Shown here: positions 12,334 to 51,105 of the stretch, in pieces | Numbering within the stretch: position 1 is the stretch's first letter | How the letters are laid out: the number at the start of each line of letters is the position of its first letter | NCBI GenBank assembly: GCA_030448245.1 | Contig: JAUJNH010000006.1 | Span: 15,788-79,787 of the forward strand | Direction of reading: 5' to 3' | Length of the DNA stretch: 64,000 bases | Source of the DNA: Acidimicrobiales bacterium | GTDB taxonomy: Bacteria; Actinomycetota; Acidimicrobiia; Acidimicrobiales; JAUJNH01 | Translations under genes and position numbers: made by a program | The notes under the pieces: model-generated | Told to the model about the DNA's origin: nothing | The model's input: the letters and a program-made list of their open reading frames with translations, nothing else | Databases searched by the model: none

Positions 12334-12433
12334 CGCCTGAGCGTCGGAGGCAAACTCGTGTCTTAGGGGCCCTACGATCTGATGCGGGGCAAGATCACGC
12401 GATCTACCTGACCAAGCTGGGGGGCGCGGCCGG

Positions 12434-13762: not shown

Positions 13763-13899
13763 CTGCTCCCGACGACCATCGCCTCGGGCCGTGCGCGCCG
13801 GAACGGCGGAGAGCTCACCGACAGCCAGAGGTTCCCAGGGGGGAGGAGGATCAGGCCTCGCCAGCGGCTGCGGCGTCCGGCTCCCTCCTCCGTGAGGCG

Positions 13900-20694: not shown

Positions 20695-21512
20695 CGGGCG
20701 GCACCACTCGGCCGCACGGCCGAGCGTCGGAGCGGGCTTCCAGCCGGCCGCACCGGTCGCCCACCCGGGTGCCCGAGGCGGTCGAGGCCAAGATCTGCCG
20801 TGTGCGGCAAGCTGAGAAGGTCGGCGCCGACCGCCTCGCCATCCACCTGGGCGCTCCGGCCTCGACGATCCACCGCGTCCTGGTTCGCCACGACCTCAAC
20901 CGGCTCGACCGGCAGACCGCCCAACCGATCCGCCGCTACGAACGGGCCCGCCCCGGCGAGTTGGTCCACGTCGACGTCAAGAAACTCGGGAAGATCCCGC
21001 CCGGCGGCGGCCACAAGATCCACGGCCGGGCCGCCACCAGCAGCGGCGGCCGGCGCCGGCTGCGGATCGGCTACGCCTACCTCCACACCGCCATCGACGA
21101 CCACAGCCGCCTGGCCTACACCGAGGTCCTCGCCGACGAACAAGGCCGCACCTGCGCCGGCTTTTGGCGTCGAGCCAACGCCTGGTTCGCCGCCCGGGGC
21201 GTGATCGTCGAGCGGGTCCTGACCGACAACCACTTCTCCTACCGGGGACTGCTGTTCAACCAGGCGCTGGCCGACACCAGGATCGTGCACAAGTTCTGCC
21301 GGCCCTACCGGCCCCAGACCAACGGCAAGGTCGAGCGGTTCCACCGCACCCTCCTCGAGGAATGGGCCTACGTCCGCCCCTACACCCGAGAAGCCGACCG
21401 CACCCGCGCACTTGCGCACTGGCTCCACCGCTACAACCATCACCGAGTGCACACCGCCATCGGAGACGCCCCCATCACCCGCGTCACCAACCTCCCCGCG
21501 AAACACAGCTAG
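20691..21512 (+). mobile_element. IS481-family transposase (integrase core), N-terminally truncated
   Basis: rve domain with DDE residues (HVDVKK...D, ...TDNHFSY, ...E); only the second HTH (SRPHRSP) is present and the reading frame begins inside the OmpA gene, so ~60 N-terminal aa are missing. Confidence 0.7.
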
Positions 21513-35811: not shown

Positions 35812-36594
35812 ATGGGCGAGCCCGAGGTCCTCTACGGGGTCGACGGCCCGGTGGCGACGGCCACGCTGCACCGGCCCGAGCGCCGGAACGCCCTGACCTG
35901 GGCGATGCTCGCCCACCTGCGGGCCGTGCTGGCCCAGGCCAAGGCCGACCCCGACGTGCGCGTGCTGGTGCTCACCGGTGCGGGTGAGGCGGCCTTTTGC
36001 GCCGGGGCCGACCTGGAGGGGATGGCGGCCGGGGCCTCGCCGCTCGAGCTGCACGACGGCCGCGGGGCGCTGGCCCGGGTCTTCGAAGACCTCTGGTCGC
36101 TGGGCAAGCCGACCATCGCCAAGGTGCGGGGCCACTGCCTGGCCGGCGGGTTCGGGCTGGCCCTGTCGTGCGACCTCGTGCTGGCCGCCGCCGACGCCAC
36201 GTTCGCCACGCCCGAGGTCGACGTCGGCCTGTGGCCCTTCATGGCCAGCGTCCCGCTGTGCCGCTCGATGCCGCCGAAGAAGGCGCTGGAGCTGATGCTG
36301 ACCGGCCGGCGGGTGGGGGCCGCCGAGGCCGACCGCCTCGGCTTCGTCACCAGGGTGGTGCCGGCCGCCGACCTGGACGCGGCCACGACCGATCTGGCGG
36401 CGACGCTGGCGGCCAAGTCGCCCACGGCCGTCCGGCTCGGCCGCGACGCCTTCTACCGGGTGTGGGATGCCGGCGCCTCCGAGGCGCTCACTGCGCTGCA
36501 CCCGCTGCTCAGCGTCCTGGTCGAGACCGACGACGCCCGCGAAGGCCTGGCTGCCTTCGCCGAGCGGCGCCCGCCGCGCTTCACTGGTCGGTGA
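35812..36594 (+). CDS. Enoyl-CoA hydratase/isomerase (crotonase) family protein
   Basis: 260 aa; crotonase oxyanion-hole motifs (FCAGADL, GHCLAGGFGLALSCD). Confidence 0.8.
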   Translation: MGEPEVLYGVDGPVATATLHRPERRNALTWAMLAHLRAVLAQAKADPDVRVLVLTGAGEAAFCAGADLEGMAAGASPLELHDGRGALARVFEDLWSLGKPTIAKVRGHCLAGGFGLALSCDLVLAAADATFATPEVDVGLWPFMASVPLCRSMPPKKALELMLTGRRVGAAEADRLGFVTRVVPAADLDAATTDLAATLAAKSPTAVRLGRDAFYRVWDAGASEALTALHPLLSVLVETDDAREGLAAFAERRPPRFTGR

Positions 36595-37370
36595 TGCTCG
36601 GCCTGCTCGCCATCAGCCTCCCTTCGGGGATCGCCGCCGGCCTGGCGGTGGCGTTCCTGGCCGGCGCCGTGTCGTTCCTGTCGCCGTGCGTGCTGCCGCT
36701 GGTGCCCAGCTACCTGTCGCTCATGTCGGGCGTGGGCGCCTCCGAGCTCGCCGTCGCCACCAAGGTCGACCAGCGCCGCATGCTCCGCTCGATCCTGCTG
36801 TTCGTGGCCGGCTACACCGCGGTGTTCACGGCCCTGGGCGCCGGCGCGTCGGCCGTCGGCTCGTTCCTGTTCGACCACCAGCTCGGCCTCCGCAAGCTCG
36901 CCGGCGCCCTGATCGTGGTGATGGGCCTGGCCGTGGCCGGCCTGGTCCGCCCAGCCTTTTTCGACCGGGAGCGCCGCTTCCACGTGTCCCCCGCGGCGCT
37001 CGGCTCCTACGCCCCACCCGTGATGGGGGCCGCCTTCGCCTTTGGGTGGTCGCCGTGCATCGGCCCGGTCCTCGGCGCCATCCTCGGGCTCGCCGCCCAG
37101 ACCGCCAGCCTCGGCCGCGGCGTGCTGCTCCTGCTCGCCTACTCGGCGGGGCTGGCCGTGCCCTTCATCGCGTCGGGCCTGGCCCTCGGCCGGCTCACCG
37201 GCGCCTTCTCGTGGGTGAGGCGGCACTTCGGGGTGATCAACCTCGTCAGCGGGCTGCTGCTGGCCGTGTTCGGCGTCCTGCTGCTGACCAACGCGGTCAC
37301 CGACGTCGTGCGCTGGCTCCAGGACGCCCTCCGGGCCCTCGGCCTCGACGCCCTCTCCAGCAGCCTGTAG
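36594..37370 (+). CDS. ccdA: Cytochrome c biogenesis thiol-disulfide transporter CcdA (DsbD-beta family)
   Basis: TGATG overlap with crotonase gene; six TM helices with conserved SPCVLPL and WSPCIGP cysteines. Confidence 0.8.
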   Translation: MLGLLAISLPSGIAAGLAVAFLAGAVSFLSPCVLPLVPSYLSLMSGVGASELAVATKVDQRRMLRSILLFVAGYTAVFTALGAGASAVGSFLFDHQLGLRKLAGALIVVMGLAVAGLVRPAFFDRERRFHVSPAALGSYAPPVMGAAFAFGWSPCIGPVLGAILGLAAQTASLGRGVLLLLAYSAGLAVPFIASGLALGRLTGAFSWVRRHFGVINLVSGLLLAVFGVLLLTNAVTDVVRWLQDALRALGLDALSSSL

Positions 37371-37412
37371 CGGGACCGGTTCGGCCGCCGGCCTCGCGGG
37401 TACCCCGGGAAG

Positions 37413-38177
37413 GTGGTGGCGAGCTGGCCGGAGGCCTTGATCCTGGTCCGGCACGGCGAGAGCTCCGGCAACGTGGCCCGGGACGAGGCCGAGTCGGCCG
37501 GGTCCGAGATCATCGACATCGGCCTGCGCGACGTCGACGTGCCCCTCTCCGACCTGGGGCGGCGCCAGGCCCGGGCCCTGGGCCACTGGCTGGCCCGCCA
37601 GCCCGATTCCGAGCGGCCCACCACCGTCCTGTCGTCGCCGTACCTGCGGGCCCAGCAGACGGCCGACGAGGCGCTGGCGGCCGCCGGGTTCGGCGGCGAC
37701 GGCGTCGAGCGGCTGCTGGACGAGCGGCTGCGCGAGCGGGAGTTCGGCGTGCTCGACCGCCTGACCCGGCCGGGTCTCGTGGCTCGCGAGCCGCAGCAGG
37801 CCGAGCTGCGGGCCTTCCTCGGGAAGTTCTACCACCGGCCTCCCGGGGGCGAGAGCTGGGCCGACGTGGGGCTGCGGGTGCGGACCGTGCTCGACACGCT
37901 GTGCCGCGAGTTCGCCGGCGAGCGGGTGCTGATCAGCACCCACCAGGTGGTCGTGCTGATGTTCCGCTACGTCCTGGAGGCCATGACCGAGGCCGACGTC
38001 CTGGGCGTCTCGCGGGCCGAGCCCGTCGCCCACTGCTCGGTCACCACCTTCGTGCACGACCCGTCGGCCCACCGGCGTGGCGGCATGGTGCTGCAGGCCT
38101 ACAACAGCGTCGAGCCGCTCGACGACGAGGACGAGCCCGTCACCGAGGAGGAAGATGCCCCCGCCGCCGCCAGCTGA
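37413..38177 (+). CDS. Histidine phosphatase family protein (phosphoglycerate-mutase-like)
   Basis: RHGES catalytic motif (LVRHGESSGN); C-terminal acidic tail. Confidence 0.7.
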   Translation: MVASWPEALILVRHGESSGNVARDEAESAGSEIIDIGLRDVDVPLSDLGRRQARALGHWLARQPDSERPTTVLSSPYLRAQQTADEALAAAGFGGDGVERLLDERLREREFGVLDRLTRPGLVAREPQQAELRAFLGKFYHRPPGGESWADVGLRVRTVLDTLCREFAGERVLISTHQVVVLMFRYVLEAMTEADVLGVSRAEPVAHCSVTTFVHDPSAHRRGGMVLQAYNSVEPLDDEDEPVTEEEDAPAAAS

Positions 38178-39075
38178 GGACGAGGGCGGCGCCGGCGATC
38201 CGCCCGCCGTCGAGGTCGACGCCGAGCTCCTGCGCCGGTGGGCGCTGCCGCCGCTCGAGGGGGCCAAGTCCAGCCGGGGCACCTGCCTGATCGTGGGCGG
38301 CTCGGCCCTGACTCCCGGGGCGGTGGTGCTGGCGTCGATCGGCGCCCTGCGCTCGGGCGTGGGGAAGGTGCAGGTGGCAACGGCGGCCAGCGTGGCCGCG
38401 GCGCTGGCCGTGGCCGTGCCAGAAGCCCTCGTGGTCGGCCTCGACGAGGACGCCGACGGGCACATCGTGCCGGCCTCAGTCGACGCCCTGGCCGGGCCGC
38501 TGGCCGGCGCCACGTCGGTCCTCGTCGGCCCGGGCTGCCTCGACCAGGAGGCCACCCACGAGCTGCTGGTCCGGGTGGCGACCGGCCTCGACGAAGGGGT
38601 CCTGGTGGTCGACGCCAAGGCCCTCCCCGGGCTGGGCGGCGATCCCGCCGCCCTGCGCCGCCAGCGGGGCCGCGCCATCGTCACGCCGAACGGCAAGGAG
38701 GTGGCGGCCCTGAGCGGCCGTGACGAGGTGGGCGACGACGAGCTGGCCGACGTGGGTGCCGGGCTGGCCGACAGGCTCGGCGCCGTGGTGGCCGCCAAGG
38801 CGGCCGACACGCAGGTCGCCGCACCCGACGGGCGCCGGTGGCGGGTGCGGGGCGGCGGATCCGGCCTGTCGACCTCCGGCTCGGGCGACGTGCTGGCCGG
38901 CGTCGTCGCCGGGCTGGCCGCTCGGGCCGACGAGTCGGCCCAGGCCACCGTTCACGGCGTGCACGCCCACGCCGAGGCCGGCCGCCGGCTGGCGTCCCGG
39001 GTGGGCCGGGTCGGCTTCCTGGCCCGGGAGCTGCTCGACGAGGTCCCCCGGATCCTGGACGAGCTGGCCCCCTGA
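38155..39075 (+). CDS. nnr: ADP-dependent NAD(P)H-hydrate dehydratase (YjeF C-terminal/Nnr2 domain)
   Basis: Carbohydrate-kinase-like motifs (GPGCLD, GSGDVLAG); start overlaps phosphatase gene by 23 nt. Confidence 0.7.
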   Translation: MPPPPPAEDEGGAGDPPAVEVDAELLRRWALPPLEGAKSSRGTCLIVGGSALTPGAVVLASIGALRSGVGKVQVATAASVAAALAVAVPEALVVGLDEDADGHIVPASVDALAGPLAGATSVLVGPGCLDQEATHELLVRVATGLDEGVLVVDAKALPGLGGDPAALRRQRGRAIVTPNGKEVAALSGRDEVGDDELADVGAGLADRLGAVVAAKAADTQVAAPDGRRWRVRGGGSGLSTSGSGDVLAGVVAGLAARADESAQATVHGVHAHAEAGRRLASRVGRVGFLARELLDEVPRILDELAP

Positions 39076-39101
39076 CGGCCCCTGCGGCCTTCCGGCCCGG
39101 G

Positions 39102-39965
39102 TCAGGAGGGCACGGCGCGGGCCAGGTGGGTGTAGAAGGTCCAGACCGAGGCGAGGAGCGGGAGGGCGACGAGGAGCCTGGCCGGCCACCGGCGCCACAG
39201 CCGGCCGAGGACCGACCCGGCGATGCCGAGGGCCAGGACCACGGTGCCCCACAGGGCCGACGGGACCCGCTCGGCCGGGTCGCCGCTGGCGCCCACCACC
39301 TCCTGGGCGACCGGACGGGCCTCCGTGGCGGCCACGGCCGGGTTGGGCTCGATGTCGGGTGACCTCGGGGCCGGGAGGGCCGCGGGGCCCTTCAGGTCGG
39401 CCACGACCACCAGCCGCTTGGCGGCCGAGAAGCGGGGGTGGCAGGTGGTGAGGGTGAGCTGGTTGCCGGTGGTGGGGTTGAGCACCTCGATCTCGTCCGG
39501 GTCGACGACGAACACCTTGCTGACCTCGTAGCGGAAGGCGCCCTGCACCGTGCTGACGAGGATCGGGTCGCCCGCCTCCAACTGGTCGAGCTTGAAGAAG
39601 GGTGCGCCGTAGGTGGTGCGGTGCCCGGCGATGGCGCTGTTGCCCGGCTGGCCGGGCAGCGGCGTGGTCGCGTAGTGCCCGGGTCCCTTGCGCAGGTCCG
39701 ACAGGTCCACGCCCTCGACCACCGCCTTGTCGAGCCCGATGCGGGGGATCCGGAGCCTGGCCACCGCCGATCCGACAGGAGGCGGTGGCGGCGCCGGCTC
39801 CTCCGCGAGGGGCTTGCTGACGTCCAGCTCGACCGGGGGAGCCGGGACGGGCAGGTCCTCCCGCAGGGCCGTCTGGGTGCGGGCCTCGCTGACGTTGGTC
39901 CCGAGGAGCTCGAAGGCCACGAAGCCGAGGACCAGGACGCCGAGGCTGATGAGCGTGCGCCCCAT
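39102..39965 (-). CDS. Sortase (class E/F-like) with extra C-terminal TM segments
   Basis: N-terminal TM anchor, catalytic TLTTCHP motif with conserved His/Arg; ~60-aa C-terminal hydrophobic extension. Confidence 0.7.
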   Translation of the reverse strand: MGRTLISLGVLVLGFVAFELLGTNVSEARTQTALREDLPVPAPPVELDVSKPLAEEPAPPPPPVGSAVARLRIPRIGLDKAVVEGVDLSDLRKGPGHYATTPLPGQPGNSAIAGHRTTYGAPFFKLDQLEAGDPILVSTVQGAFRYEVSKVFVVDPDEIEVLNPTTGNQLTLTTCHPRFSAAKRLVVVADLKGPAALPAPRSPDIEPNPAVAATEARPVAQEVVGASGDPAERVPSALWGTVVLALGIAGSVLGRLWRRWPARLLVALPLLASVWTFYTHLARAVPS

Positions 39966-40241
39966 GACCGACAGGACGCTGGCCAAGTCGACCCGGCGGG
40001 GTGGGGGGGCGGGCGGCGGCGCCGGCTCGACCCGCACCGCCGCGGCCTGGGCCGATGCACCGGCCAGGGCGGCGGCTGCCACCTCTGCGGGATCGGGCTG
40101 GGCGGCCGGGCGCGCAGGCGTCCGCCCCGGGGGACGGGGAGGTGCGGCACCGGGGGCGTCGAGGCCGCTGCGGAAGGCCGAGGAGAACCCGGGGCGCCTT
40201 GGTGGAACCGAAGGCCCCCCCGGTAGCCTGGGTCCGCTGGC

Positions 40242-40946
40242 ATGAGCCTCGCCGTCCACCTCCGCTCCGCCGTCTGCCTGCTCGGACGCTTCCCTGCCCT
40301 CGCGGGCGTCGACCTCGACGTCCGGGACGGCGAGGTGGTGCTCCTGGCCGGGCCGAACGGTGCCGGGAAGACCACCTTGCTGCGCGCCTGTGCCGGCCTG
40401 GTGCCCGTCGTCGAAGGGACCGCTGTGGTCCTCGGTCACGACCTGCGGGCCGACCGGAGGCCCGTGCGCCGGCTGCTTGGGCTCGTCGGTCACGCCACCT
40501 CCCTCTACGACGACCTCTCGGTTGCCGACAACGTCCGCTTCAGCGTACGCGCCCGGGGCGGCTCGTCCGGTGCGGTCGCCCCTGCGCTCGAGCGGCTGGG
40601 CCTCGACGGGCGCCTGCGCGACGTGCCCGTGGCCCGCCTCAGCGCCGGTCAGCGGCGCCGCTGCACCCTGGCGGGCCTCGTCGCCTGCGACCCACAGCTG
40701 TGGCTGCTCGACGAGCCCCACGCCGGCCTCGACCCCGAAGGGCGCGACGTGGTCGACCGCCTGGTGGCCGATGCCGCGGCCCGGGGACGCACGGTCCTGC
40801 TGGCCAGCCACGACCTCCACCGGGCCGCCGCCGTCGCCTCGCGCCAGGTCATCATCGAAGCCGGGACCGCGCGCAAGCACCTGGCTGGTGGCCCGGGCGC
40901 CGCACCCGGCGCTCCGGTCGAGCAGGCGGCCCAGCATGTGGGCTGA
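40242..40946 (+). CDS. ccmA: Heme exporter ATP-binding protein CcmA
   Basis: ABC ATPase Walker A GPNGAGKT, signature LSAGQRRR, Walker B LLDEP; first gene of the ccm operon. Confidence 0.8.
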   Translation: MSLAVHLRSAVCLLGRFPALAGVDLDVRDGEVVLLAGPNGAGKTTLLRACAGLVPVVEGTAVVLGHDLRADRRPVRRLLGLVGHATSLYDDLSVADNVRFSVRARGGSSGAVAPALERLGLDGRLRDVPVARLSAGQRRRCTLAGLVACDPQLWLLDEPHAGLDPEGRDVVDRLVADAAARGRTVLLASHDLHRAAAVASRQVIIEAGTARKHLAGGPGAAPGAPVEQAAQHVG

Positions 40947-41604
40947 CGCCGGGCTGGTGGCGGGAAAGGACCTGCGCATCGAGCTGCGGAGCCGGGTCGG
41001 GGTCAACCAGGTGGTGCCGTTCTCCCTGGTCGTGCTGGTCCTGTTCGCCTTCGCCCTCAACCCCGACCGCGGCGTCCTCGACCGGGCCGCGCCGGGCTTG
41101 TTCTGGGTGGCCGTGCTCCTCTCGTCGCTGCTGGCCACCCAGCGGTCGTTCGCCGTCGAGGCCGCCGACGGGAACCGCGATGGGCTGCGCATGTCGGGGC
41201 TCGACCCGGCCGGTCTGTTCCTCGGCAAGGCTGCTGCCGTCGCCGCCCAGCTCCTGCTGCTCGAGGCCCTGCTGCTGGTCGGCATCACGGTCCTCTACGG
41301 CACGACGCTGCGCTCGTTCGGCCTGCTGGCCCTGACGTGCCTGCTCGCCACCGTCGGCCTCGCCGGGGCCGGCACCGTCTACGGCGTCATGGCCTTCGGG
41401 CTGCGCGTGCGCGAGACGCTGCTGCCCCTGCTCGTGCTCCCGGTGCTGGCCCCCGTCCTGCTGGCCGCCACCCGCAGCTTCGAGGCGGCGCTGGCCGGAG
41501 CGGCCGGCGAGGCCACCAGCTGGCTGGGCCTGCTCACGGCCTTCGCCGTCCTCTACGTCGTCGTCGGCCTGTTCGGCTTCGGCCCCCTCCTCGAGGAGTC
41601 CTGA
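40936..41604 (+). CDS. ccmB: Heme exporter membrane protein CcmB
   Basis: 222 aa, six TM helices, 11-nt overlap with ccmA; start by offset within ORF 40360..41604. Confidence 0.75.
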   Translation: MWADAGLVAGKDLRIELRSRVGVNQVVPFSLVVLVLFAFALNPDRGVLDRAAPGLFWVAVLLSSLLATQRSFAVEAADGNRDGLRMSGLDPAGLFLGKAAAVAAQLLLLEALLLVGITVLYGTTLRSFGLLALTCLLATVGLAGAGTVYGVMAFGLRVRETLLPLLVLPVLAPVLLAATRSFEAALAGAAGEATSWLGLLTAFAVLYVVVGLFGFGPLLEES

Positions 41605-42401
41605 TGGCGTCCACCACCCCAGCCGCCCATCGGTCCGGGGGCCGGCTGTCGCCGCTCCTCGGTTGGGCGTCGCTCGTCCTGGTGGGGGCCACCGTCGGCC
41701 TCGGCCTGGTGCTCCCGAAGACGGCCGAGCAGGCCGAGTACAGCCGCCTGATCGCCGTCCACCCGCCCGTGGCCTGGGTGTCGTACGTCGCCGTGGGCGT
41801 GGCCTCGGTCGCCGCCATCGCCTACCTGGCCAGCCGCCGGGCCGCCTTCGACCGGGTGAACGCGGCCAGCCTCGAGGTCGGCGCGGTGTTCACCGCCCTC
41901 ACCCTGGCCACCGGCTCGATCTGGAGCCGGCCGACGTGGGGCGTCTGGTGGCGGTGGGAGCCGCGGCTCACCACCGAGGCGCTGCTGCTGGCCGTGCTGG
42001 TGGGGGCCATCGCCCTTCGACGGGCCCTGCCGCCCGGCACGGGTCGGGGCGTCGTCACCTCGATCTTCTCCCTGGCCACCCTGGGGCTCCTGCCCATCGT
42101 GCACTTCTCGGTCGAGTGGTGGCGGTCGCAGCACCAGCCGGGCACCCTCCTGGCCCCCGAGCCGTCGAGCAACGCCGACACCCCCTACCTCCTCGCCATG
42201 TTCGTCGGCTTCCTGGCCTTCACGGTCCTGTACGCGTGGATGGTGGTGCAGCGGGTGCGGATCGAGCGCCTCGAGGAGCAGGCCGACGACCTCGCGCTGG
42301 GGCGGGCCATCGCCGAGCGCCGGGCCGAGCGCGCCGACCCGCCGCCGGTCGCCCCGGCCGTGACCGGTCCCGCCGTGCCCACCGGTGAGCAGGCCGTCTG
42401 A
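41604..42401 (+). CDS. ccmC: Heme exporter protein CcmC
   Basis: TGATG overlap with ccmB; WWD-domain motif region (WGVWWRWEPRLT) and conserved His residues. Confidence 0.8.
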   Translation: MASTTPAAHRSGGRLSPLLGWASLVLVGATVGLGLVLPKTAEQAEYSRLIAVHPPVAWVSYVAVGVASVAAIAYLASRRAAFDRVNAASLEVGAVFTALTLATGSIWSRPTWGVWWRWEPRLTTEALLLAVLVGAIALRRALPPGTGRGVVTSIFSLATLGLLPIVHFSVEWWRSQHQPGTLLAPEPSSNADTPYLLAMFVGFLAFTVLYAWMVVQRVRIERLEEQADDLALGRAIAERRAERADPPPVAPAVTGPAVPTGEQAV

Positions 42402-42553
42402 TGGGCTACGTGGCCGCCGGCTACCTCACCGTCCTCGGCGGGGTCGCCGCCTACGCCGCCTGGCTCGTCCGCCGGTCGAGGCAGCTGACCGGTGACCGCA
42501 GGAGCGGGTCGGTCGGGCCGACGCGGCCCCGTGAGGCCCGGGAGGCGCCGTGA
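42401..42553 (+). CDS. ccmD: Heme exporter protein CcmD (50 aa), not in ORF track
   Basis: ATG overlaps ccmC stop; single TM then basic stretch (MGYVAAGYLTVLGGVAAYAAWLVRRSRQL); stop overlaps ccmE GTG. Confidence 0.45.
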   Translation: MGYVAAGYLTVLGGVAAYAAWLVRRSRQLTGDRRSGSVGPTRPREAREAP

Positions 42554-43068
42554 GGCCTCCCGCAGCCGACGCCCCGGTCCTCGACGACGAGGACCTGCCG
42601 CCGGTCGTCACCACCCGCCGGCCGCGCCGGGCCAAGCCGCTGCGCATCGTGGTGGCGTCGGTGGTCACCGTCGCCGCCATCGCCTTTCTGGTCTCCAAGG
42701 GCCTGGGCAGCGCCACCGTCTACTTCAAGACGGCCGACGAGGCCGTCGCCGAGCGGGCCGACCTCGGCAGCCGGCGCTTCCGCATCCAGGGAACGGTCCA
42801 GGTCGGCACGGTCCGCCAGGACGAGGGCCGGCTCCTCTTCACGATCCTGGGGGACCGGGGGGCGGTGGTGCCCGTCGTGCACACCGGCGGCCAGCCCACC
42901 GGGCTGTTCAAGGAGTCGATCCCCGTGGTGCTCGAGGGGCGGTGGGCCGAGGGCACCGACGCCTTCTCCTCGGACACGATCATCGTGAAGCACTCGGAGG
43001 ACTACCGGGTCGACAACCCGGCCCGGGTCGACGACTACGCGCCGGCGCCGCCGGCCCCCTCGTCGTGA
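42550..43068 (+). CDS. ccmE: Cytochrome c-type biogenesis heme chaperone CcmE
   Basis: N-terminal TM anchor, OB-fold, heme-binding His in VKHSEDY (HxxxY) motif. Confidence 0.8.
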   Translation: MRPPAADAPVLDDEDLPPVVTTRRPRRAKPLRIVVASVVTVAAIAFLVSKGLGSATVYFKTADEAVAERADLGSRRFRIQGTVQVGTVRQDEGRLLFTILGDRGAVVPVVHTGGQPTGLFKESIPVVLEGRWAEGTDAFSSDTIIVKHSEDYRVDNPARVDDYAPAPPAPSS

Positions 43069-45128
43069 ACGCCACCCTCGGCTCGATGGGGGTCCTGCTG
43101 GGCCTGGCCGGCGCCATCGCCGGCGTGGCCGCCCTCGCCGCCGGCCTGGTGACGGGCAAGGCGGCGCTGCTGCGCAGCGGCACGGTCTACGCGTGGATGG
43201 TGCTGGGCGGGGCGATCACCGCGTTCGTGGCGATGGAGCGGGCCCTGCTGGGCCACGACTTCTCCCTGCGGTACGTGGCCGAGAACCACAGCCGCTCGAC
43301 ACCGACGATGTACACGTTCGCCTCGCTGTGGAGCCGGCTCGAGGGGTCGATCCTGTTGTGGGCCCTGGTCCTGGCTGGGTTCGGCGCGGCCATGGCGTGG
43401 CGCTTCCGCGACCGCCGCACCGATCCGGTGGTGGCGTGGGCGACGCTCGTGGTCCTGGCCGTGTCGGTCTTCTTCTTCGGCCTCCTGGCCGGCCCGGCCG
43501 ACCCGTTCGGCACCGTCAGCCCGGTGCCTGCCGACGGCCCGGGACCCAACCCGCTGCTGCAGAACCACCCGCTGATGCTCATCCATCCGCCGATCCTGTA
43601 CCTCGGCTACGTCGGCTTCACCGTGCCGTTCGCCTTTGCCGTGGCCGCCCTCGCCACCGGGCGGCTGGGCGAGGGGTGGCTGGTGGAGACCCGGCGCTGG
43701 ACGCTGCTGGCCTGGGGGTGCCTCACCGTGGGCATCGCCATGGGCGCCTGGTGGAGCTACGAGGTGCTGGGCTGGGGCGGCTTCTGGGCGTGGGACCCGG
43801 TCGAGAACGCCTCGTTCCTGCCCTGGCTCACCGCCACCGCCTACCTCCACTCGGTGATGGTGCAGGAGCGGCGGGGGATGCTCCGGGTCTGGAACCTGTC
43901 ACTGCTGTGCGCCACGTTCGCCCTCACCATCCTGGGCACGTTCCTCACCCGCTCCGGCGTGCTCGAGAGCGTCCACGCCTTTTCCAACAGCAGCATCGGC
44001 GGGTGGATCCTCGGGTTCTTCGCCCTGATCGTGGTCGTGGTGATCGGGCTCATCGGCTGGCGAGGCGACCGGCTGCGCTCGCCCGGCACCATCGACAGCC
44101 CGGTCAGCCGCGAGGGCGCGTTCCTCGTCAACAACCTGCTGTTCGCCGGCTTCGCCTTCGTCGTCCTGCTCGGCACCGTCTTCCCCCTGGTCACCGAGGC
44201 CCTGAAGGACGACCGCATCACCGTCGGCCGCCCCTACTTCGACCGGATGGCGGCGCCGATCGCCGTGTCGCTGCTGTTCCTGATGGCGGTGGCGCCGGTG
44301 CTGCCGTGGCGCAAGGCGGCGGCCGAGACCCTGCGCGACCGGATGCAGTGGCCGTTCGCCTTTGCCGTCGTCGTCACCGTCGCCCTGGTGGCCTCGGGCC
44401 TGCGGGGCTGGTTGGCCCTCGTCGCCTTCTTCCTCGGAGGCCTCGGCGGCGGCTCGGCGGTGCGTCAGCTCATCCTGGCCACCCGCCGCAACGGGTGGCG
44501 GGGCCTCGTCGGCCGGACCAACGGCGGGATGGTGGTGCACCTCGGTGTCGTGCTGATCGCCGTCGCCTTTGCCGCCAGCGCCGCCTATGCGTCGAGAGCG
44601 GAGGTCAGCCTGGCCGAGGGGGAGAGCGCCGAGGTCGGCGGCCACCGCGTCACCTACCTGGGCACGGAGACCCGCCGCTTCGCCGAGTCCAACCCAAAGG
44701 CGGCGGTGACCACGGCCCGCCTGCGGGTCGACGGCGGCCAGGTGTACGAGCCGGCCATCACCCAGTACCGGTTCCAGGCCCAGGGGATCGGCACCCCGTC
44801 GGTGCGGACCGGGTTGTTCGAGGATGTCTACACCACCCTGGTCGAGGCGCCCTCCGAGCCAGGCGGGCGGGCCACCATCGGCGTGCTGGTCCACCCGCTC
44901 ACCATCTGGCTGTGGACGGGTGCCGGGCTCATGGCCGTCGGCACGGTCCTGGCCATGGTGCGCGCCGGTGGCCGCAAGCCGGCGCCGCCGGCCCGCCGCC
45001 GGCCGCCTCCCCCTGCCGTCCGGCGACCGAACCCGCGCCCCAAGGCCGGAGGAGCCAAGCGCCAGCTCGACAAGGTCCCCGTCGGCGCCCGTGACCGCAC
45101 CGCCCCGGTGGCCAAGCCCGCGCCATGA
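43065..45128 (+). CDS. ccmF: Cytochrome c-type biogenesis protein CcmF (heme lyase subunit)
   Basis: GTG overlapping ccmE stop; ~688 aa polytopic; WWD motif WGGFWAWDPVENAS plus conserved His. Confidence 0.85.
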   Translation: MNATLGSMGVLLGLAGAIAGVAALAAGLVTGKAALLRSGTVYAWMVLGGAITAFVAMERALLGHDFSLRYVAENHSRSTPTMYTFASLWSRLEGSILLWALVLAGFGAAMAWRFRDRRTDPVVAWATLVVLAVSVFFFGLLAGPADPFGTVSPVPADGPGPNPLLQNHPLMLIHPPILYLGYVGFTVPFAFAVAALATGRLGEGWLVETRRWTLLAWGCLTVGIAMGAWWSYEVLGWGGFWAWDPVENASFLPWLTATAYLHSVMVQERRGMLRVWNLSLLCATFALTILGTFLTRSGVLESVHAFSNSSIGGWILGFFALIVVVVIGLIGWRGDRLRSPGTIDSPVSREGAFLVNNLLFAGFAFVVLLGTVFPLVTEALKDDRITVGRPYFDRMAAPIAVSLLFLMAVAPVLPWRKAAAETLRDRMQWPFAFAVVVTVALVASGLRGWLALVAFFLGGLGGGSAVRQLILATRRNGWRGLVGRTNGGMVVHLGVVLIAVAFAASAAYASRAEVSLAEGESAEVGGHRVTYLGTETRRFAESNPKAAVTTARLRVDGGQVYEPAITQYRFQAQGIGTPSVRTGLFEDVYTTLVEAPSEPGGRATIGVLVHPLTIWLWTGAGLMAVGTVLAMVRAGGRKPAPPARRRPPPPAVRRPNPRPKAGGAKRQLDKVPVGARDRTAPVAKPAP

Positions 45129-45754
45129 CCGCAACCGACGAGGTGAGCCAGGAGAGTGAGCCGGCCGCTGCTCCTCGCCCGGCCGATGACCCTGACGTCC
45201 TGCCGAGGCGGGGCCGGCGCAGCGTCCTGCTCACCGTGCTGGTGGCGGCGGTGGTGCTGGGTGGCTTCGTCCTGCTCCTCGTCCTGGCCAAGCAGCCCGA
45301 CGGTCGCAGCGCCGTCGTCGGCAGGCCGGCCCCCGCGACCGACCGCGGGTTCGCCACCCTGGACGGCGGCGACGAGGTGCGCCTGGCCGACTTCCGGGGC
45401 CGCTACGTCGTCCTCAACTTCTTCGCCTCGTGGTGCGTGCCGTGCGAGAAGGAGCACCCCGAGCTGGTGCGCTTCCAGCAGCGCCACGGTCCCGCCGGCG
45501 ACGCCGCCGTCGTCCAGGTCCTCTACAACGACAAGCCCGGGCCGGCCCGGCAGTTCTTCCGCGACCGGGGCCAGGGCGGCTGGCCGGTGCTGATCGACGA
45601 GGAGGGCCAGTTCGCCCTCGACTACGGCGTCACGGGTCCGCCGGAGACCTTCCTCATCGACCCGCAGGGCAACGTCCTGTACGCGGCGAAGGGCGCCGTC
45701 GACCAGGCCCGCCTCGAGGACCTGCTGGTCCGGGCCAAGGCAGGCCGGCCGTAG
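45125..45754 (+). CDS. ccmG: Thiol:disulfide interchange protein CcmG/DsbE (TlpA-like)
   Basis: TM anchor, thioredoxin fold with WCVPC active site, GVTGPPETFLID motif. Confidence 0.8.
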   Translation: MTATDEVSQESEPAAAPRPADDPDVLPRRGRRSVLLTVLVAAVVLGGFVLLLVLAKQPDGRSAVVGRPAPATDRGFATLDGGDEVRLADFRGRYVVLNFFASWCVPCEKEHPELVRFQQRHGPAGDAAVVQVLYNDKPGPARQFFRDRGQGGWPVLIDEEGQFALDYGVTGPPETFLIDPQGNVLYAAKGAVDQARLEDLLVRAKAGRP

Positions 45755-46200
45755 TGCGCCGGTGGCTGCCGCTCGCCCTCCTGGGCGGCCTGCTGCTGGC
45801 CGCTCTCGCCGTCGCCGCCCGGCCCGAGGTGGATCGCAGCGAGGAGGCGCGGGTCGAGCGCATCGCCCGCGAGGTCCGCTGCCCCACGTGCCGGGGCCTG
45901 TCCGCCGCCGACTCCGACGCCGAGGCCGCCACCGCCGTCAAGGTCTTCATCCGCGACCGGCTGCGCCAGGGAGCCAGCGACGCTCAGGTCAAGGCCGAGC
46001 TGGCCGACCGCTTCGGCACCAGCATCCTGCTGCGACCGCCGGCCTCGGGCCTCAGCGGCCTCGTCTGGGCGGTGCCGGTCGGCGCCTTCGTCCTCGCCGC
46101 CGCCGGCCTGGGCTTCGCCTTCTGGCGGTGGCGGGCCCGGGGCCTGCGGAGGGCGACCGACGACGACGTCGTGCTGGTCGAGCGGGCCCGTCGGGCATGA
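45754..46200 (+). CDS. ccmH: Cytochrome c-type biogenesis protein CcmH
   Basis: GTG overlapping ccmG stop; signal/TM, CPTC motif (VRCPTCRGLS), C-terminal TM. Confidence 0.7.
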   Translation: MRRWLPLALLGGLLLAALAVAARPEVDRSEEARVERIAREVRCPTCRGLSAADSDAEAATAVKVFIRDRLRQGASDAQVKAELADRFGTSILLRPPASGLSGLVWAVPVGAFVLAAAGLGFAFWRWRARGLRRATDDDVVLVERARRA

Positions 46201-47057
46201 GGGCCGACGAGCTGAGGACCGAGCTCGAGGAGGAGCGGGACTTCCTCCTCCGCTCGCTCGACGACCTCGAGGCCGAGCACGCGGCCGGCGACCTGGCCGA
46301 CGACGACTACCGGGCGCTCGAGGAGGACTACACGGCGCGGGCCGCTGCGGTGCTGCGCCGGCTCCAGCGCCTCGACGGTCCCGAGGAGGTGGCGGTCAAG
46401 GGGAGCGACCCGGAGGCGAAGGCCACCGCCACCGCTCCCCGCCGGGCCGACACGTCCCGGCGGGCACGGTGGCCGATGCTCCTCGGCATCTTCGCCACGA
46501 TCGCCCTGGCCGCCGGCTCGGGCTACCTCGTCACGCAGTCGTCCGGCGAGCGCCGGCCGGACCAGGGGGTCTCGGGAGGCCCCGACAGCTCACCCCGGTC
46601 GCTCCTGCAGCAGGCCATCGACCTCGACAACAGCGGCAAGCTGGTGGACGCGGCCAAGCTGTACGACGCCGTGCTCGCCGAGGAGCCGGAGAACGTCGTC
46701 GCCCTCACCCGGCGGGGCTGGGTGCTGGGCCGCTCCGGGCGCCAGGCCGGGAGCACCGAGCTGCTGCAGGCCGGGCTGGGCTACCTCGACCGGGCCACCG
46801 ACGTCGATCCCAGCTACCCGGACGCCCACGCCTTCCGGGGCCTGGTGCTGGGCGCCCTGCGCCGGCCCGGCGAGGCCGCCTGCGAGTTCCGGCTGTGGCT
46901 GGCCATCGCTCCCATCACCGACCCGCAGCGGCCGGCCATCGAGGGCGTGCTCGACGAGGCGAGAGCCCAGGCCGGCGGCACCCTGCCCGAGTGCCCGGAG
47001 CCGCCCGTCCCGGTGCCGGTGCCGCTGCAACCCGGGGCCCCGACCCCGATGCCGTGA
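46197..47057 (+). CDS. ccmI: CcmI/CycH-like TPR-containing cytochrome c biogenesis protein
   Basis: ATGA overlap with ccmH; one TM, then TPR-like repeats (AAKLYDAVLAEEPENVVALTRRGWVL). Confidence 0.5.
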   Translation: MRADELRTELEEERDFLLRSLDDLEAEHAAGDLADDDYRALEEDYTARAAAVLRRLQRLDGPEEVAVKGSDPEAKATATAPRRADTSRRARWPMLLGIFATIALAAGSGYLVTQSSGERRPDQGVSGGPDSSPRSLLQQAIDLDNSGKLVDAAKLYDAVLAEEPENVVALTRRGWVLGRSGRQAGSTELLQAGLGYLDRATDVDPSYPDAHAFRGLVLGALRRPGEAACEFRLWLAIAPITDPQRPAIEGVLDEARAQAGGTLPECPEPPVPVPVPLQPGAPTPMP

Positions 47058-47113: not shown

Positions 47114-47665
47114 ATGCAGACGCCCACCGTCGATCGGGACCACGGGTCCACCAGAGTTGTCGACGGCGTCCGCGAGTGCGTCGAGCGTGAGCAGGAGGAG
47201 CACAGCCAGGGCGAGGAGCGGCCGCTGGGTGGCTACGCCGTCCTCCTCGCCACGTACCTGACCATGGTGCTCAGCCTGGGGTTCGTCGTCCGGCGCCGGC
47301 GCAAGCTGCCCGGTCGGCCCGCCGCCGCCGACCTGGCTCTGGTCGCCGTGGCCACCCACAAGGTCGCCCGGATGCTGTCGAAGGACTCGGTGCTCGCCAC
47401 CGTCCGCATGCCCTTCACCCGGTTCGAGGGCCCGGCCGGTCTCGGCGAGGTCAACGAATCGGTGCGGGGAAGTGGCTTGCGGCACGCGGTGGGCGAGCTG
47501 CTCACCTGCCCCTTCTGCCTGGCCCAGTGGGTGGCCACCGGCTTCACGTTCGGGATGCTCCTGGCGCCGCGTGCCACCAGGCAGGTGGCGTCGGTCTTCT
47601 GCGCGGTCACGGCCAGCGACTACCTCCAGCTGGCCTACGCCGCCGCCGAGAAGAAGGCCGAATAG
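47114..47665 (+). CDS. DUF1360 domain membrane protein
   Basis: Conserved LTCPFCLAQWVA motif and flanking TM helices. Confidence 0.6.
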   Translation: MQTPTVDRDHGSTRVVDGVRECVEREQEEHSQGEERPLGGYAVLLATYLTMVLSLGFVVRRRRKLPGRPAAADLALVAVATHKVARMLSKDSVLATVRMPFTRFEGPAGLGEVNESVRGSGLRHAVGELLTCPFCLAQWVATGFTFGMLLAPRATRQVASVFCAVTASDYLQLAYAAAEKKAE

Positions 47666-47712
47666 CAGCGAACGGGCGTTCGATTCGGGGGCTCGCTGGG
47701 TACGACCGCGGC

Positions 47713-47922
47713 ATGAGCGACGACCAGCACGTGGTGCCCAACCCCGAGAAGGACCCCGACCGGTGGGTCACGGGCGACGAGCCCATGACCGGCCCGCAGG
47801 CCAGCTACCTCAGCACCCTGGCCACCGAAGCCGGCGAGGAGCCCCCGCCCGACGACCTGACCAAGGCCGAGGCGTCGAAGCGGATCGATGCGCTGCAGGA
47901 GGAGACGGGCCGGGGGACGTGA
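47713..47922 (+). CDS. DUF3072 domain protein (69 aa)
   Basis: DPDRWVTGDEPMTGPQASYLSTLATEAGE...DLTKAEASKRIDALQ matches the DUF3072 signature. Confidence 0.55.
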   Translation: MSDDQHVVPNPEKDPDRWVTGDEPMTGPQASYLSTLATEAGEEPPPDDLTKAEASKRIDALQEETGRGT

Positions 47923-48023: not shown

Positions 48024-49136
48024 TCAGGTGCGCAGGGCGCGGAGGCCGGCCAGCACCTGCGGCAGGGCGTCGAGAAAGGCGTTGACGTCGTCGTCGTCTG
48101 TGCTCCAGCCCACGCTCACGCGCAGGCTGCGGTCGCCCTCGACCCCCATCGCGGCGAGCACCGGCGAAGGCTCGAGCAGCTCGGACGAGCACGACGAACC
48201 CGAGTGGACGGCCACCCCGGCCTGGTCCAGGCCCAGCAGCACGGGCTCGGCCTCGACCCCCTCCAGGCCGAAGCAGGCGATGTGGGGCAGCCGGTCGTCC
48301 GGGGTGTAGCGGACGACGCCTTCGACCGAGGAGGCTCCCTCCAGGAGGCGCTCGGTCAGCCGGTGCTGGCGGGCCCCCTCGGCCACCGGGTCCACTCCGT
48401 CCAGGGCGGCGGCGAAGCCGACGGCGCCGGCGACGTCCTCGAGGCCGGCCCGGCGCATGCGCTCCTGCGCCCCCCCGACGAGCAGCGGCTCGACCCGCAG
48501 GCCCCGGCGCACCAGCAGGGCGCCCACACCGCGGGGGCCGCCCAACTTGTGGGCGCTCACCGACAGCAGGTCAGCGCCGAGGGCGGAGAAGTCAAAGGCC
48601 GCCCGCCCTGCGGCCTGGGCGGCGTCGACGTGGACCAGCGTGCGGGCCTTCCGGGCGGCGGCCACCACCTCGGCCACGGGCTGGACCGTCCCCACCTCGT
48701 GGTTGCCCCACTGCACGTTGACGAGGGCGGCGCCGGCCAGGTCGACGGCCTCGAGCGAGATCCGCCCGGTGGCGTCGACCGGCGGCTCGATCACGCCGCC
48801 GCCGGCGCGAGCCGCCCACTCCCGCACGCACGAGTGCTCCACGGCGGCGGCCACCACGGCCCCCTGGGGCGTGCGGCGGATCGCCCCCCAGGTGGCCATG
48901 GCCACGGCCTCGGTGGCGCCGCTGGTCAGCACCACCTCCCGGCCCGCCCGGCAGCCCAGGGCGGCGGCGATCCGCTCGCGGGCCTCTTCGAGCGCGGCCC
49001 GGGCCATCCGCCCCTCGGTGTGCACCCGCCCGGGGTCGGCGGCGCCGAGCCAGGGTGCCATGGCCTCCACCACCCCGGGCCGCAGGGGCGAGGTCGACGC
49101 GTGGTCGAGGTAGTGGCGGTTGTTCGCTCCGCTCAC
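48024..49136 (-). CDS. Cysteine desulfurase (NifS/IscS-like, class V aminotransferase)
   Basis: GTG start; PLP-lysine motif SVSAHKLGGPRGVGAL, catalytic Cys in HSGSSCSS. Confidence 0.8.
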   Translation of the reverse strand: MSGANNRHYLDHASTSPLRPGVVEAMAPWLGAADPGRVHTEGRMARAALEEARERIAAALGCRAGREVVLTSGATEAVAMATWGAIRRTPQGAVVAAAVEHSCVREWAARAGGGVIEPPVDATGRISLEAVDLAGAALVNVQWGNHEVGTVQPVAEVVAAARKARTLVHVDAAQAAGRAAFDFSALGADLLSVSAHKLGGPRGVGALLVRRGLRVEPLLVGGAQERMRRAGLEDVAGAVGFAAALDGVDPVAEGARQHRLTERLLEGASSVEGVVRYTPDDRLPHIACFGLEGVEAEPVLLGLDQAGVAVHSGSSCSSELLEPSPVLAAMGVEGDRSLRVSVGWSTDDDDVNAFLDALPQVLAGLRALRT

Positions 49137-49149
49137 CTGGCCCGGGCAG

Positions 49150-49905
49150 TCACACGAGGGTGACGCAGGTGGCGTCGCCCCGGGCCCGGCTCTGCTCCTG
49201 CTCGGGGGAGCGGTCGACACCGAGGCCGGCGAGCATGCCGCGGACCATGCCCCGGTCGACGGCGCACAGCACGGGGTGCTGCGAGGCCGTGGTGCCGAAC
49301 GGGCAGCTGTCGGCGATGACGGCGATGAGGCCGTCGCGCGACTCGGCGTGAGCAGCGAACCCGTGGGCGGTGAGGGCGTCGGCGACGGCGTGCAGCGCGG
49401 TGCGCACGTCGCGGACCGCGTCGGCACCGGCCATCGACGCAGCCAGTGCCCGGCCGTGCTCCTCGCCGACCTGCTCGGCCATGGCCTCGGCCTGCTCGCG
49501 GGGCAGCAGGGCCAGCGCCCGCCCGAGGAGGGTGACGATGAGGTCGTCGCGCCGGGCGGGGAAGCCGGTGGTGCCGGCCGAGGCGGCGGCGGCCACGTCG
49601 ACCGGAACCCGGTAGCGCTTGGCCGGGCGCCCGGCGACCCGAGCCTCCGAGCGCGACACGAACACCTCGAGGTAGGTGGACGCGGCCAGCTTGTCGAGGT
49701 GGTGCCGGGCGACGTTGGGGTGCAGCCCGAGGTGCTCGGCCACCTCGGCCGCGGTGACGCCGGCGTCAGCCGCGTCGCGGGCGAAGAGCCAGGCGGACCG
49801 CCGGGTCGGGTCGCCAAAGGCGTTGCTGATGGCGGCGACGTCGGCCCCGAACTCGCGGTGCTGCTCGGGCTCGACACCGGCGGCGACCGGCTGGCTACGG
49901 ACCAC
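49150..49905 (-). CDS. ArsR-type winged-helix regulator with C-terminal Cys cluster (SufR-like)
   Basis: HTH (DPTRRSAWL...VTAAEVAEHLGLHPNVARHHLDKL); C-terminal CPFGTTASQHPVLC (C-x12-C) plus a further Cys; 13 nt upstream of the cysteine desulfurase; start codon uncertain. Confidence 0.55.
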   Translation of the reverse strand: MVRSQPVAAGVEPEQHREFGADVAAISNAFGDPTRRSAWLFARDAADAGVTAAEVAEHLGLHPNVARHHLDKLAASTYLEVFVSRSEARVAGRPAKRYRVPVDVAAAASAGTTGFPARRDDLIVTLLGRALALLPREQAEAMAEQVGEEHGRALAASMAGADAVRDVRTALHAVADALTAHGFAAHAESRDGLIAVIADSCPFGTTASQHPVLCAVDRGMVRGMLAGLGVDRSPEQEQSRARGDATCVTLV

Positions 49906-49920
49906 GAACCGATAGTGTAA

Positions 49921-51105
49921 ATGGCCGTGCCCGTCACCGAGTCGCAGGTCATCGACGCCCTGCGGCCGGTGCAGGATCCCGAGATCGGCACGAGCATCGT
50001 CGAGCTCGAGATGGTCAGGGCAGTCATCGTCGACGGTGGCCTCGTCACCGTCCTGATCGCCCTCACCGTCGCCGGCTGCCCGATGAAGGCCGAGATCGAG
50101 AGCCGGGTCACCGAGGCGGTCGCACCCCTGCCCGGCGTCGAGCAGGTCAAGGTCGAGCTCACGGTCATGTCGCCCCAGGAGCTGGACGCGCTGAAGGCCA
50201 AGATGGGCGCCGGTGGCCACGCCGGCCACGACCACGGCGGCGGCCACACCTTCGCCCAGGGCCGGGGTGGCGAGGCGCCCGACATCAGCTTCAACCGGGC
50301 CGGCTCGAAGACCCGGGTGCTGGCCATCACCTCCGGCAAGGGCGGGGTCGGCAAGTCGTCGGTCACCGTGAACCTGTCCGTGGCGCTGGCCAACCTGGGC
50401 CACGACGTCGCCGTGCTCGACGCCGACATCTACGGGTTCTCGATCCCGAAGATGCTGGGAGCCGACGTGCAGCCCACCGTCCTCGACGAGGAGGAGAAGC
50501 TGCTGCTGCCGGTGGCAGCCCACGGCCTGCGCATCATCTCGGCCGGCAACTTCATCCCTGACGACCAGGCCATGATCTGGCGGGGGCCGATGCTCCACCA
50601 GATGCTCCGCGAGTTCCTCACCCGGGTGTGGTGGGGCGACCCCGACTTCCTCGTGGTCGACATGCCCCCCGGCACCGGCGACATCGCACTCTCGGTGGCC
50701 CAGTACCTGCCGGGGGCCGAGGTCTACGTGGTCACCACGCCGCAGCCAGCCGCCCAGCGGGTGGCGCAGCGCTCGGCGATGATGGCCCGCAACGACAAGA
50801 TCAACCAGCCGGTCATGGGTGTCATCGAGAACATGAGCTGGTTCACGGCCGACGACGGCACCCGTTACCGCCTGTTCGGCGAGGGCGGCGGCCAGCAGCT
50901 GGCCGACGAGCTGGACGTGCCGCTGGTGGGCCAGATCCCGCTCGTGCCCGAGCTGCGCCAGGGTGGCGACACCGGCCTGCCGATCACCATCACCGACCCG
51001 GCCGGCGAGGTGGCCCGGGTGTTCGAGGAGATCGCCAAGCGCATCGAGGCGACCTCGCCGCCCAAGCCGACGAAGGTCTTCCGCCCCGAGCTGCGCATCC
51101 AGTAG
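49921..51105 (+). CDS. mrp: Mrp/ApbC/NBP35-family Fe-S cluster carrier ATPase
   Basis: N-terminal DUF59 (VTESQVIDALRPVQDPEIG), His-rich linker, deviant Walker A SGKGGVGKSS, CxxC-equivalent region. Confidence 0.85.
   Translation: MAVPVTESQVIDALRPVQDPEIGTSIVELEMVRAVIVDGGLVTVLIALTVAGCPMKAEIESRVTEAVAPLPGVEQVKVELTVMSPQELDALKAKMGAGGHAGHDHGGGHTFAQGRGGEAPDISFNRAGSKTRVLAITSGKGGVGKSSVTVNLSVALANLGHDVAVLDADIYGFSIPKMLGADVQPTVLDEEEKLLLPVAAHGLRIISAGNFIPDDQAMIWRGPMLHQMLREFLTRVWWGDPDFLVVDMPPGTGDIALSVAQYLPGAEVYVVTTPQPAAQRVAQRSAMMARNDKINQPVMGVIENMSWFTADDGTRYRLFGEGGGQQLADELDVPLVGQIPLVPELRQGGDTGLPITITDPAGEVARVFEEIAKRIEATSPPKPTKVFRPELRIQ

Follow-up and report, generated by a model that had tools for sequence, protein, structure and literature searches.

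A complete, colinear System I cytochrome c maturation operon in a member of the Acidimicrobiales

Gene content and layout of the ccm locus

The locus described here encodes the components of System I cytochrome c maturation (Ccm) and lies on contig JAUJNH010000006.1 of an Acidimicrobiales bacterium (GenBank assembly GCA_030448245.1). It was analysed within a stretch of 64 kb (contig positions 15,788 to 79,787), referred to as the window, and all coordinates are those of the window. At a G+C content of 73% the raw lists of open reading frames (ORFs) were noisy. Therefore, frames were assigned by codon-position GC content (GC at third positions, GC3, ∼0.95; GC1 > GC2), and the resulting genes were submitted to family scans. 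Together, frame analysis and family scans placed nine co-directional genes, ccmABCDEFGHI, on the + strand at 40242-47057.

The operon opens with the genes for heme delivery: ccmA (40242-40946; 234 amino acids, aa), the ATPase of the heme-release ATP-binding cassette (ABC) complex; ccmB (40936-41604; 222 aa), its membrane subunit; ccmC (41604-42401; 265 aa), a WWD-domain heme handler; ccmD (42401-42553; 50 aa), a single-helix membrane protein; and ccmE (42550-43068; 172 aa), a membrane-anchored heme chaperone. These are followed by ccmF (43065-45128; 687 aa), the heme lyase core, ccmG (45125-45754; 209 aa), a membrane-anchored TlpA/DsbE-type thioredoxin, ccmH (45754-46200; 148 aa), an RCxxC protein, and a tetratricopeptide repeat (TPR) gene in the ccmI position (46197-47057; 286 aa).

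All eight junctions between these genes overlap, in order by 11, 1 (TGATG), 1 (TGATG), 4 (GTGA), 4 (GTGA), 4 (ATGA), 1 (TAGTG) and 4 (ATGA) nt. The initial annotation, made from the letters of the sequence, had described nine consecutive genes joined by overlaps of 1–11 nt, and the present gene calls agree. Among same-strand neighbour pairs outside the operon in the same window, where gene starts are approximate, about 7 of 34 overlap. Given this difference, the unbroken run of overlaps is regarded as a real operon signature, and the translational-coupling architecture proposed earlier is borne out; in high-GC genomes, such runs are no rarity among operons that encode several subunits. The identical nine products (234, 222, 265, 50, 172, 687, 209, 148 and 286 aa) were called independently on the conspecific assembly GCA_030447705.1 (L081), which is 99.85% identical to the window across 17.7 kb, and the exact sequences of CcmC, CcmE, CcmF, CcmH and CcdA, with the same starts, have already been deposited in NCBI. 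A single 431-aa ORF at 45762-47057 was considered as an alternative call at the end of the operon and rejected; its N-terminal 140 aa are an out-of-frame, arginine-rich translation, and frame-specific GC3 resolves the region into ccmH and the ccmI-like gene.

Family membership and motifs of the Ccm proteins

The gene identities proposed by the initial annotation were borne out, for eight of the nine genes, by Pfam, NCBIfam and PDB matches, CcmD being assigned by way of its orthologs. The Pfam cutoffs were clearly exceeded by CcmB, CcmC, CcmE, CcmF and CcmH. CcmA exceeded the equivalog cutoff of TIGR01189 (139.4 bits vs 131.6) and matched PF00005. CcmB was recognised by PF03379 (5.1e-34; 118 bits vs a cutoff of 24.9) while remaining below the equivalog cutoff of TIGR01190 (6.4e-22; 78 vs 156). 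CcmC matched PF01578 and TIGR01191 (4e-40) and aligned with Escherichia coli CcmC as resolved in the cryo-EM structures of CcmABCD (7F02_C) at 3.8e-25, with both heme-ligand histidines in register (LHVP/VHPP and IIHYSVEWW/IVHFSVEWW). Its WWD motif reads WGVWWRWEPRL, a glutamate taking the place of D126 in the E. coli motif (WGTWWVWD). The corresponding residues in relatives are W-D-A-R (58 sequences) or W-D-P-R (2 sequences), compared to W-E-P-R here (41937-41960, residues ∼112-119).

The 50-aa CcmD ORF had no direct family match, and no PDB match either as a single sequence or as a profile. A small ORF of the same kind (Y-x-x-A-G-Y...Y-A...RRR) begins no more than 30 nt from the ccmC stop in 30 relatives, however, and when the window ORF was scanned together with 19 orthologs, 11 of these 20 members matched the CcmD family PF04995 (best E 6.9e-6). 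The same 50-aa gene was called in the conspecific assembly and in one further related locus (L082). The identification as CcmD is thus made on the basis of ortholog matches to PF04995 and of position. CcmE matched PF03100 (1.7e-16; 60.9 bits), and its heme-binding motif KHSEDY (HxxxY) falls on KHDENY of E. coli CcmE (8CE8_E); the histidine and tyrosine are kept in relatives.

CcmF matched PF16327 at 2.2e-52 and PF01578 at 7.5e-35, and aligned with CcmF of Thermus thermophilus (6ZMQ_A) across residues 3-633 at 7e-138. The WWD motif, WGGFWAWDPVEN, lines up with that of this structure, as do four histidines that may be the counterparts of E. coli H173, H261, H303 and H491. Past the aligned region the protein continues into a C-terminal tail of ∼50 aa that is rich in proline and arginine. 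CcmG carries a transmembrane (TM) segment at residues 30-48 and a WCVPC (CxxC) active site, and it matched Redoxin (1.5e-21) and AhpC-TSA. As its score against TIGR00385 dsbE (1e-25) was 90 compared to a cutoff of 123, membership is assigned by superfamily and context only. It also matched the ResA model (5e-20). CcmH scored 86.5 bits against PF03918 (1.4e-24; cutoff 25) and aligned with Pseudomonas CcmH (2HL7_A) at 2.6e-8 with the RCPxC motif in register, the motif here being VRCPTC (RCxxC); a hydrophobic segment lies at its N-terminus and a single TM helix at its C-terminus. A membrane anchor is present in each of CcmE, CcmG, CcmH and the CcmI-like protein, an arrangement that would suit an organism without an enclosed periplasm.

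At its N-terminus, the product of the ninth gene has a conserved helical region that is charged and acidic; a single TM segment (residues 93-111) and a TPR domain outside the cytoplasm follow. Canonical CcmI is described with two TM helices and a cytoplasmic loop. The ninth protein matched generic TPR families only, whether scanned alone or as a profile of its orthologs, and its N-terminal acidic region (window 46197-46480; consensus ELExERDFLLxSLxDLExERxAGD....DYxxLRDxYTARAAxVLRAL in the ortholog alignment) matched no family model. In 44 related loci the ccmH stop coincides with, or lies close to, the start of a gene encoding 150-616 aa, and the 4-nt overlap with ccmH recurs in 13 of the 15 related loci with a listed offset. 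Based on position and architecture, the gene may be called CcmI-like, by analogy rather than proven orthology. Most relatives have an ORF of 235-342 aa in this position; the longest one (616 aa, in L029 at 12090-13940) may have arisen by fusion to the gene that follows or through a frameshift in sequencing.

Conservation, composition and flanking genes

Relatives of the locus were obtained by scanning one genome per GTDB species for CcmF. At least 591 matches were confirmed, and the 80 best of these (52-90% identity) are the relatives considered here. These belong to the Acidimicrobiales, to metagenome-assembled genomes (MAGs) labelled Actinomycetota or Actinomycetes, and to Aquihabitans sp. 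G128, with a single exception. That locus (L042, JAGWNV010000071.1) is labelled ‘Acidobacteriota bacterium’ and carries an ech-ccdA-ccmABCEF arrangement of the Acidimicrobiales type at 57-60% identity; binning or labelling of the contig is probably in error. The host is a member of the order Acidimicrobiales, class Acidimicrobiia, phylum Actinomycetota, and the class E sortase and PdtaS-type kinase encoded in the window fit an actinobacterium, in agreement with the actinobacterial-like genome suggested at the outset.

Synteny was assessed by searching all window proteins against the 80 loci with tblastn, 52 of which had enough flanking DNA for comparison. The genes ccmA, B, C, E, F, G, H and I are colinear in 48 of the 52 Acidimicrobiales loci, over a range of CcmF identity of 52-90%. 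The initial annotation had offered lateral acquisition or an atypical lineage as explanations for the operon, and its occurrence in nearly all sampled Acidimicrobiales bears out the latter. A second cluster of ccmF, ccmH and ccmG, in some cases with ccdA, lacks ccmABCE and was observed in L045, L050, L057 and L066 (L057 and L046 are from the same MAG); its product may be a paralogous heme lyase of NrfEF type that acts on a special cytochrome.

The composition of the ccm block, which had been proposed as a check on its origin, is native to the window. Codon fractions within amino acids correlate with those of the rest of the window at r = 0.995, GC3 is 0.951 compared to 0.946, and the codon z-scores of the single genes lie between -1.15 and +1.0. 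In tetranucleotide distance, too, the block is unremarkable, 23 of 58 sliding chunks lying farther from the window average. The sole compositional outlier of the window, which also shows the largest tetranucleotide distance, lies at ∼16-28 kb (GC 0.67-0.70 vs ∼0.74). An rve-type, insertion sequence (IS)-type integrase (20691-21512) is encoded there, preceded by small ORFs with 4-nt overlaps (19532-20694), and gene density by GC3 criteria is poor across 24-27.8 kb; the region probably represents an insertion of limited size or an IS element. No mobile-element gene flanking the ccm operon was found in the family scans.

A ccdA gene (36594-37370, + strand; 258 aa) lies upstream of the operon, its end separated from the ccmA start by 2.9 kb, close to the distance of ∼3 kb first reported. 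It encodes a six-TM DsbD_TM thiol-disulfide electron transporter (PF02683 at 1.6e-13), and a protein of an uncultured Acidimicrobiales bacterium that clusters with it at ≥90% identity carries the name ‘CcdA (DsbD analog)’. The ATG of ccdA shares 1 nt with the stop codon of the enoyl-CoA hydratase (ech) gene before it, and an enoyl-CoA hydratase gene in this place is widely conserved among the 80 related loci. In 28 related loci ccdA is found directly upstream of ccmA on the same strand, which supports the earlier suggestion that CcdA is the likely supplier of reductant.

Three further genes lie between ccdA and ccmA. Those for a histidine phosphatase (37413-38177) and an NAD(P)HX dehydratase (38155-39075) were found by tblastn in none of the 80 species-level relatives and are present among the gene calls of the conspecific assembly, so that 37413-39075 looks like a species-specific insertion separating ccdA from the operon. 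The third encodes a class E sortase (39102-40037, - strand; 311 aa; NF033747 169.7 bits vs a cutoff of 160; PF04203), with the same call in the conspecific assembly. As initially described, the sortase gene is divergent from the operon, with 204 bp between it and ccmA, and a divergent sortase gene stands directly upstream of ccmA in 17 related loci. The sortase is a neighbour and is outside the Ccm machinery. On comparison with the relatives, the phosphatase, dehydratase and sortase genes would all have been inserted between ccdA and ccmA in this species.

The interval to which the initial annotation had assigned the operon and ccdA (36594-47057) does contain both in complete form. The operon proper, however, is confined to 40242-47057, and the interval also takes in the unrelated genes for the histidine phosphatase and the NAD(P)HX dehydratase, as well as the sortase gene. 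The arrangement of a phosphatase gene beside ccdA resembles the mycobacterial hemL-phosphatase-resA-ccdA cluster; an echo of that cluster was rejected, as the phosphatase gene is absent from all 80 related loci and is thus treated as a local insertion.

Downstream of the ninth gene, 47114-47922 encodes a membrane protein of family DUF1360 and a DUF3072 protein of 69 aa, and the conspecific assembly has both genes. A GTG at 47054 would give the DUF1360 gene a 4-nt overlap with the ccmI-like gene. Its inclusion as a tenth coupled gene was nevertheless rejected, since the independent caller uses an ATG 56 nt downstream and tblastn matched the protein in only one of the 80 relatives (L002). Both genes are probably outside the Ccm system. 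Farther on, a - strand class V aminotransferase gene (cysteine desulfurase-like) and a gene for a helix-turn-helix protein are divergent from that of an Mrp/NUBPL Fe-S carrier ATPase (48024-51105), a small group of genes related to Fe-S that closely follows the ccm operon. At the other end of the window, 1-2919 holds genes for the [NiFe]-hydrogenase maturation proteins HypF (cut by the window start) and HypD; the organism probably has a hydrogenase. Rfam and tRNA scans gave no match.

Interpretation and relation to known maturation systems

Based on the observed gene content, motifs, overlaps, synteny and composition, the locus is best read as a functional, canonical System I pathway that is native and vertically inherited within the Acidimicrobiales rather than a recent import, a reading to which we assign a probability of ∼90%. 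The biochemical steps, co-transcription and the link from CcdA to CcmG are inferred, the steps being drawn from the E. coli/Rhodobacter model (PMC3601427, PMC10457321, PMC9616876) and from general background. CcmC together with CcmD would present heme on the outer membrane face to CcmE, which would bind it covalently via the histidine of HxxxY, and the CcmAB ATPase would release holo-CcmE. CcmF and CcmH, aided by the TPR protein of the ninth gene, would then take over the heme and form the two thioether bonds to the CxxCH of the apocytochrome. Electrons to reduce the apocytochrome cysteines would be handed from the cytoplasm by CcdA to CcmG, and from there to CcmH and the apocytochrome. Because all eight junctions overlap, the nine genes are likely translated as a tightly coupled unit.

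Several observations weigh against this interpretation. The NCBIfam scores of CcmB, CcmC, CcmE, CcmF and CcmG are under the curated cutoffs; these proteins are divergent members of their families. The motif glutamate of CcmC was found in only one other species among the relatives with a recovered motif (L001), besides the identical CcmC of the conspecific assembly, and is a rare and conservative change, yet one in a residue of the heme-handling motif. No model specific to CcmI, CycH or NrfG matched the ninth protein. A c-type cytochrome substrate (CxxCH ORF) was not found in the 64 kb. Lastly, scans for promoters and terminators, which are weak for DNA of 75% GC, returned no consensus at the operon edges, the terminator scan giving four weak matches only, inside ccmF and ccmG.

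The suspicion of lateral acquisition arose from the expectation that Actinobacteria generally use System II. According to reviews, System I is the pathway of Gram-negatives, archaea and plant mitochondria, and Gram-positives have System II (PMC9145763, PMC3601427, PMC13645880); the model actinomycete Corynebacterium glutamicum uses ResB/ResC (PMC9145763). The generalisation holds for such model Actinomycetes and does not carry over to the class Acidimicrobiia. Taken with the IS-type integrase elsewhere in the window, this textbook assignment of System II to Gram-positives and model Actinomycetota (PMC9145763, PMC13645880) is what favours a recent transfer of the operon into this genome or species. 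On the other side, codon usage, GC3 and tetranucleotides are native and the outlier region lies away from ccm, no mobile-element gene stands beside the operon, and the colinear arrangement reaches down to 52% CcmF identity with the ech/ccdA flank conserved. An operon shared by relatives and native in codon usage was the pattern that the initial annotation had itself set against lateral acquisition. Recent lateral acquisition is therefore rejected as extremely improbable. A specialised NrfEFG-type lyase, acting on an unusual heme motif in place of general maturation, is also very improbable. CcmF does match the NrfE model TIGR03145 (4.4e-116) and CcmH the NrfF model TIGR03147 (2.2e-13), and four relatives have second ccmF-ccmH(-ccmG) clusters without ccmABCE. 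However, these scores are far under the cutoffs (389 vs 927 and 50 vs 159, respectively), the genes of the heme-delivery module CcmABCDE are all present and coupled in translation, the window has no CxxCH/CxxCK gene, nrfA-like or other, and nearly all relatives have the arrangement seen here as their main one, in single copy.

Two further explanations concern the relation to System II and the deep origin of the operon. The genome could encode both systems, with a ResB/CcsA System II elsewhere and System I as an accessory, since CcdA and a TlpA-like thioredoxin serve either pathway. We consider this unlikely, given that the physical linkage of ccdA to ccmA extends through the order and that the only ResB match within the window was non-significant (PF05140, E = 0.066) and fell inside CcmF; its six-frame translation likewise yielded no third WWD-domain ORF beyond CcmC and CcmF. 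An ancient transfer is a possibility to be taken more seriously, although at less than even odds. In that case a whole System I cluster from another phylum would have entered an ancestor of the Acidimicrobiia, perhaps in exchange for System II, and would have been passed on vertically since. The ResB/ResC pathway of model Actinomycetota (PMC9145763), the nearly full-length match of CcmF to its T. thermophilus counterpart and the archaeal precedent for movement of ccm clusters between distant lineages (PMC9084895) are all consistent with this. On the other hand, no remnant of ResA/ResB/ResC or hemL was found upstream of ccdA in the relatives. An in-situ ‘cassette swap’ of System II at the ccdA locus is similarly unsupported, as the upstream DNA of the relatives encodes a GDP-mannose dehydratase or a second enoyl-CoA hydratase.

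A broader proposal can be advanced only tentatively, and we hold it to be somewhat doubtful: that the class Acidimicrobiia, sortase-bearing and presumably monoderm, relies on a complete CcdA-linked System I rather than System II, with a lineage-specific TPR ninth component (one TM segment and an acidic cytoplasmic N-terminal helix) that is not detectably homologous to CcmI. If System II is truly absent, System I would be clade-wide and naturally monoderm here, implying either an ancient replacement of the whole pathway or an ancestral System I in the Actinomycetota, and the group could serve as a monoderm model for System I. The anomaly flagged initially is a lineage trait and not a transfer event; the proteins were already deposited and standard models recognise them. 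It is also a reminder that the review-level statement that Gram-positives and Actinobacteria use System II fails for the Acidimicrobiia. In the literature searched, we found no paper on System I in this class, an absence that is no proof of its being unreported.

Compared to the proteobacterial System I of E. coli, Rhodobacter capsulatus and Pseudomonas, the locus is alike in eight components, with a CcmI-like protein in the ninth position, and in their classical order, as well as in the WWD motifs and histidines of CcmC and CcmF, the HxxxY of CcmE, the CxxC of CcmG and the RCxxC of CcmH. As in Rhodobacter and Pseudomonas, separate genes encode CcmH and the TPR protein. The locus differs in its host, a sortase-bearing actinobacterium, in a ninth protein with one predicted TM segment after a conserved acidic N-terminal helix and no CcmI-specific match, in the glutamate for the WWD aspartate of CcmC, in the extra C-terminal tails of CcmC and CcmF, and in the several proteins that score under NCBIfam equivalog cutoffs. 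The importer of reductant is CcdA and not DsbD, to which CcdA is a known alternative (PMC3601427), and in this respect the locus is Rhodobacter-like. CcmF shares the WWD motif and the four histidines with T. thermophilus CcmF (PDB 6ZMQ) and adds the proline- and arginine-rich tail of ∼50 aa. System I*, known from archaea and Desulfovibrio, has a CxxxY CcmE and no CcmH (PMC3601427). The CcmABCEF core is held in common, whereas the present locus has an HxxxY CcmE and a clear CcmH, and it is therefore not System I*. With System II (ResA/CcdA/ResB/ResC) of Bacillota and model Actinomycetota, it has in common CcdA and an anchored TlpA/ResA-like thioredoxin. The two differ in that the window holds no ResB or CcsA/ResC, and that heme would be delivered here by CcmABCDE and ligated by CcmFH.

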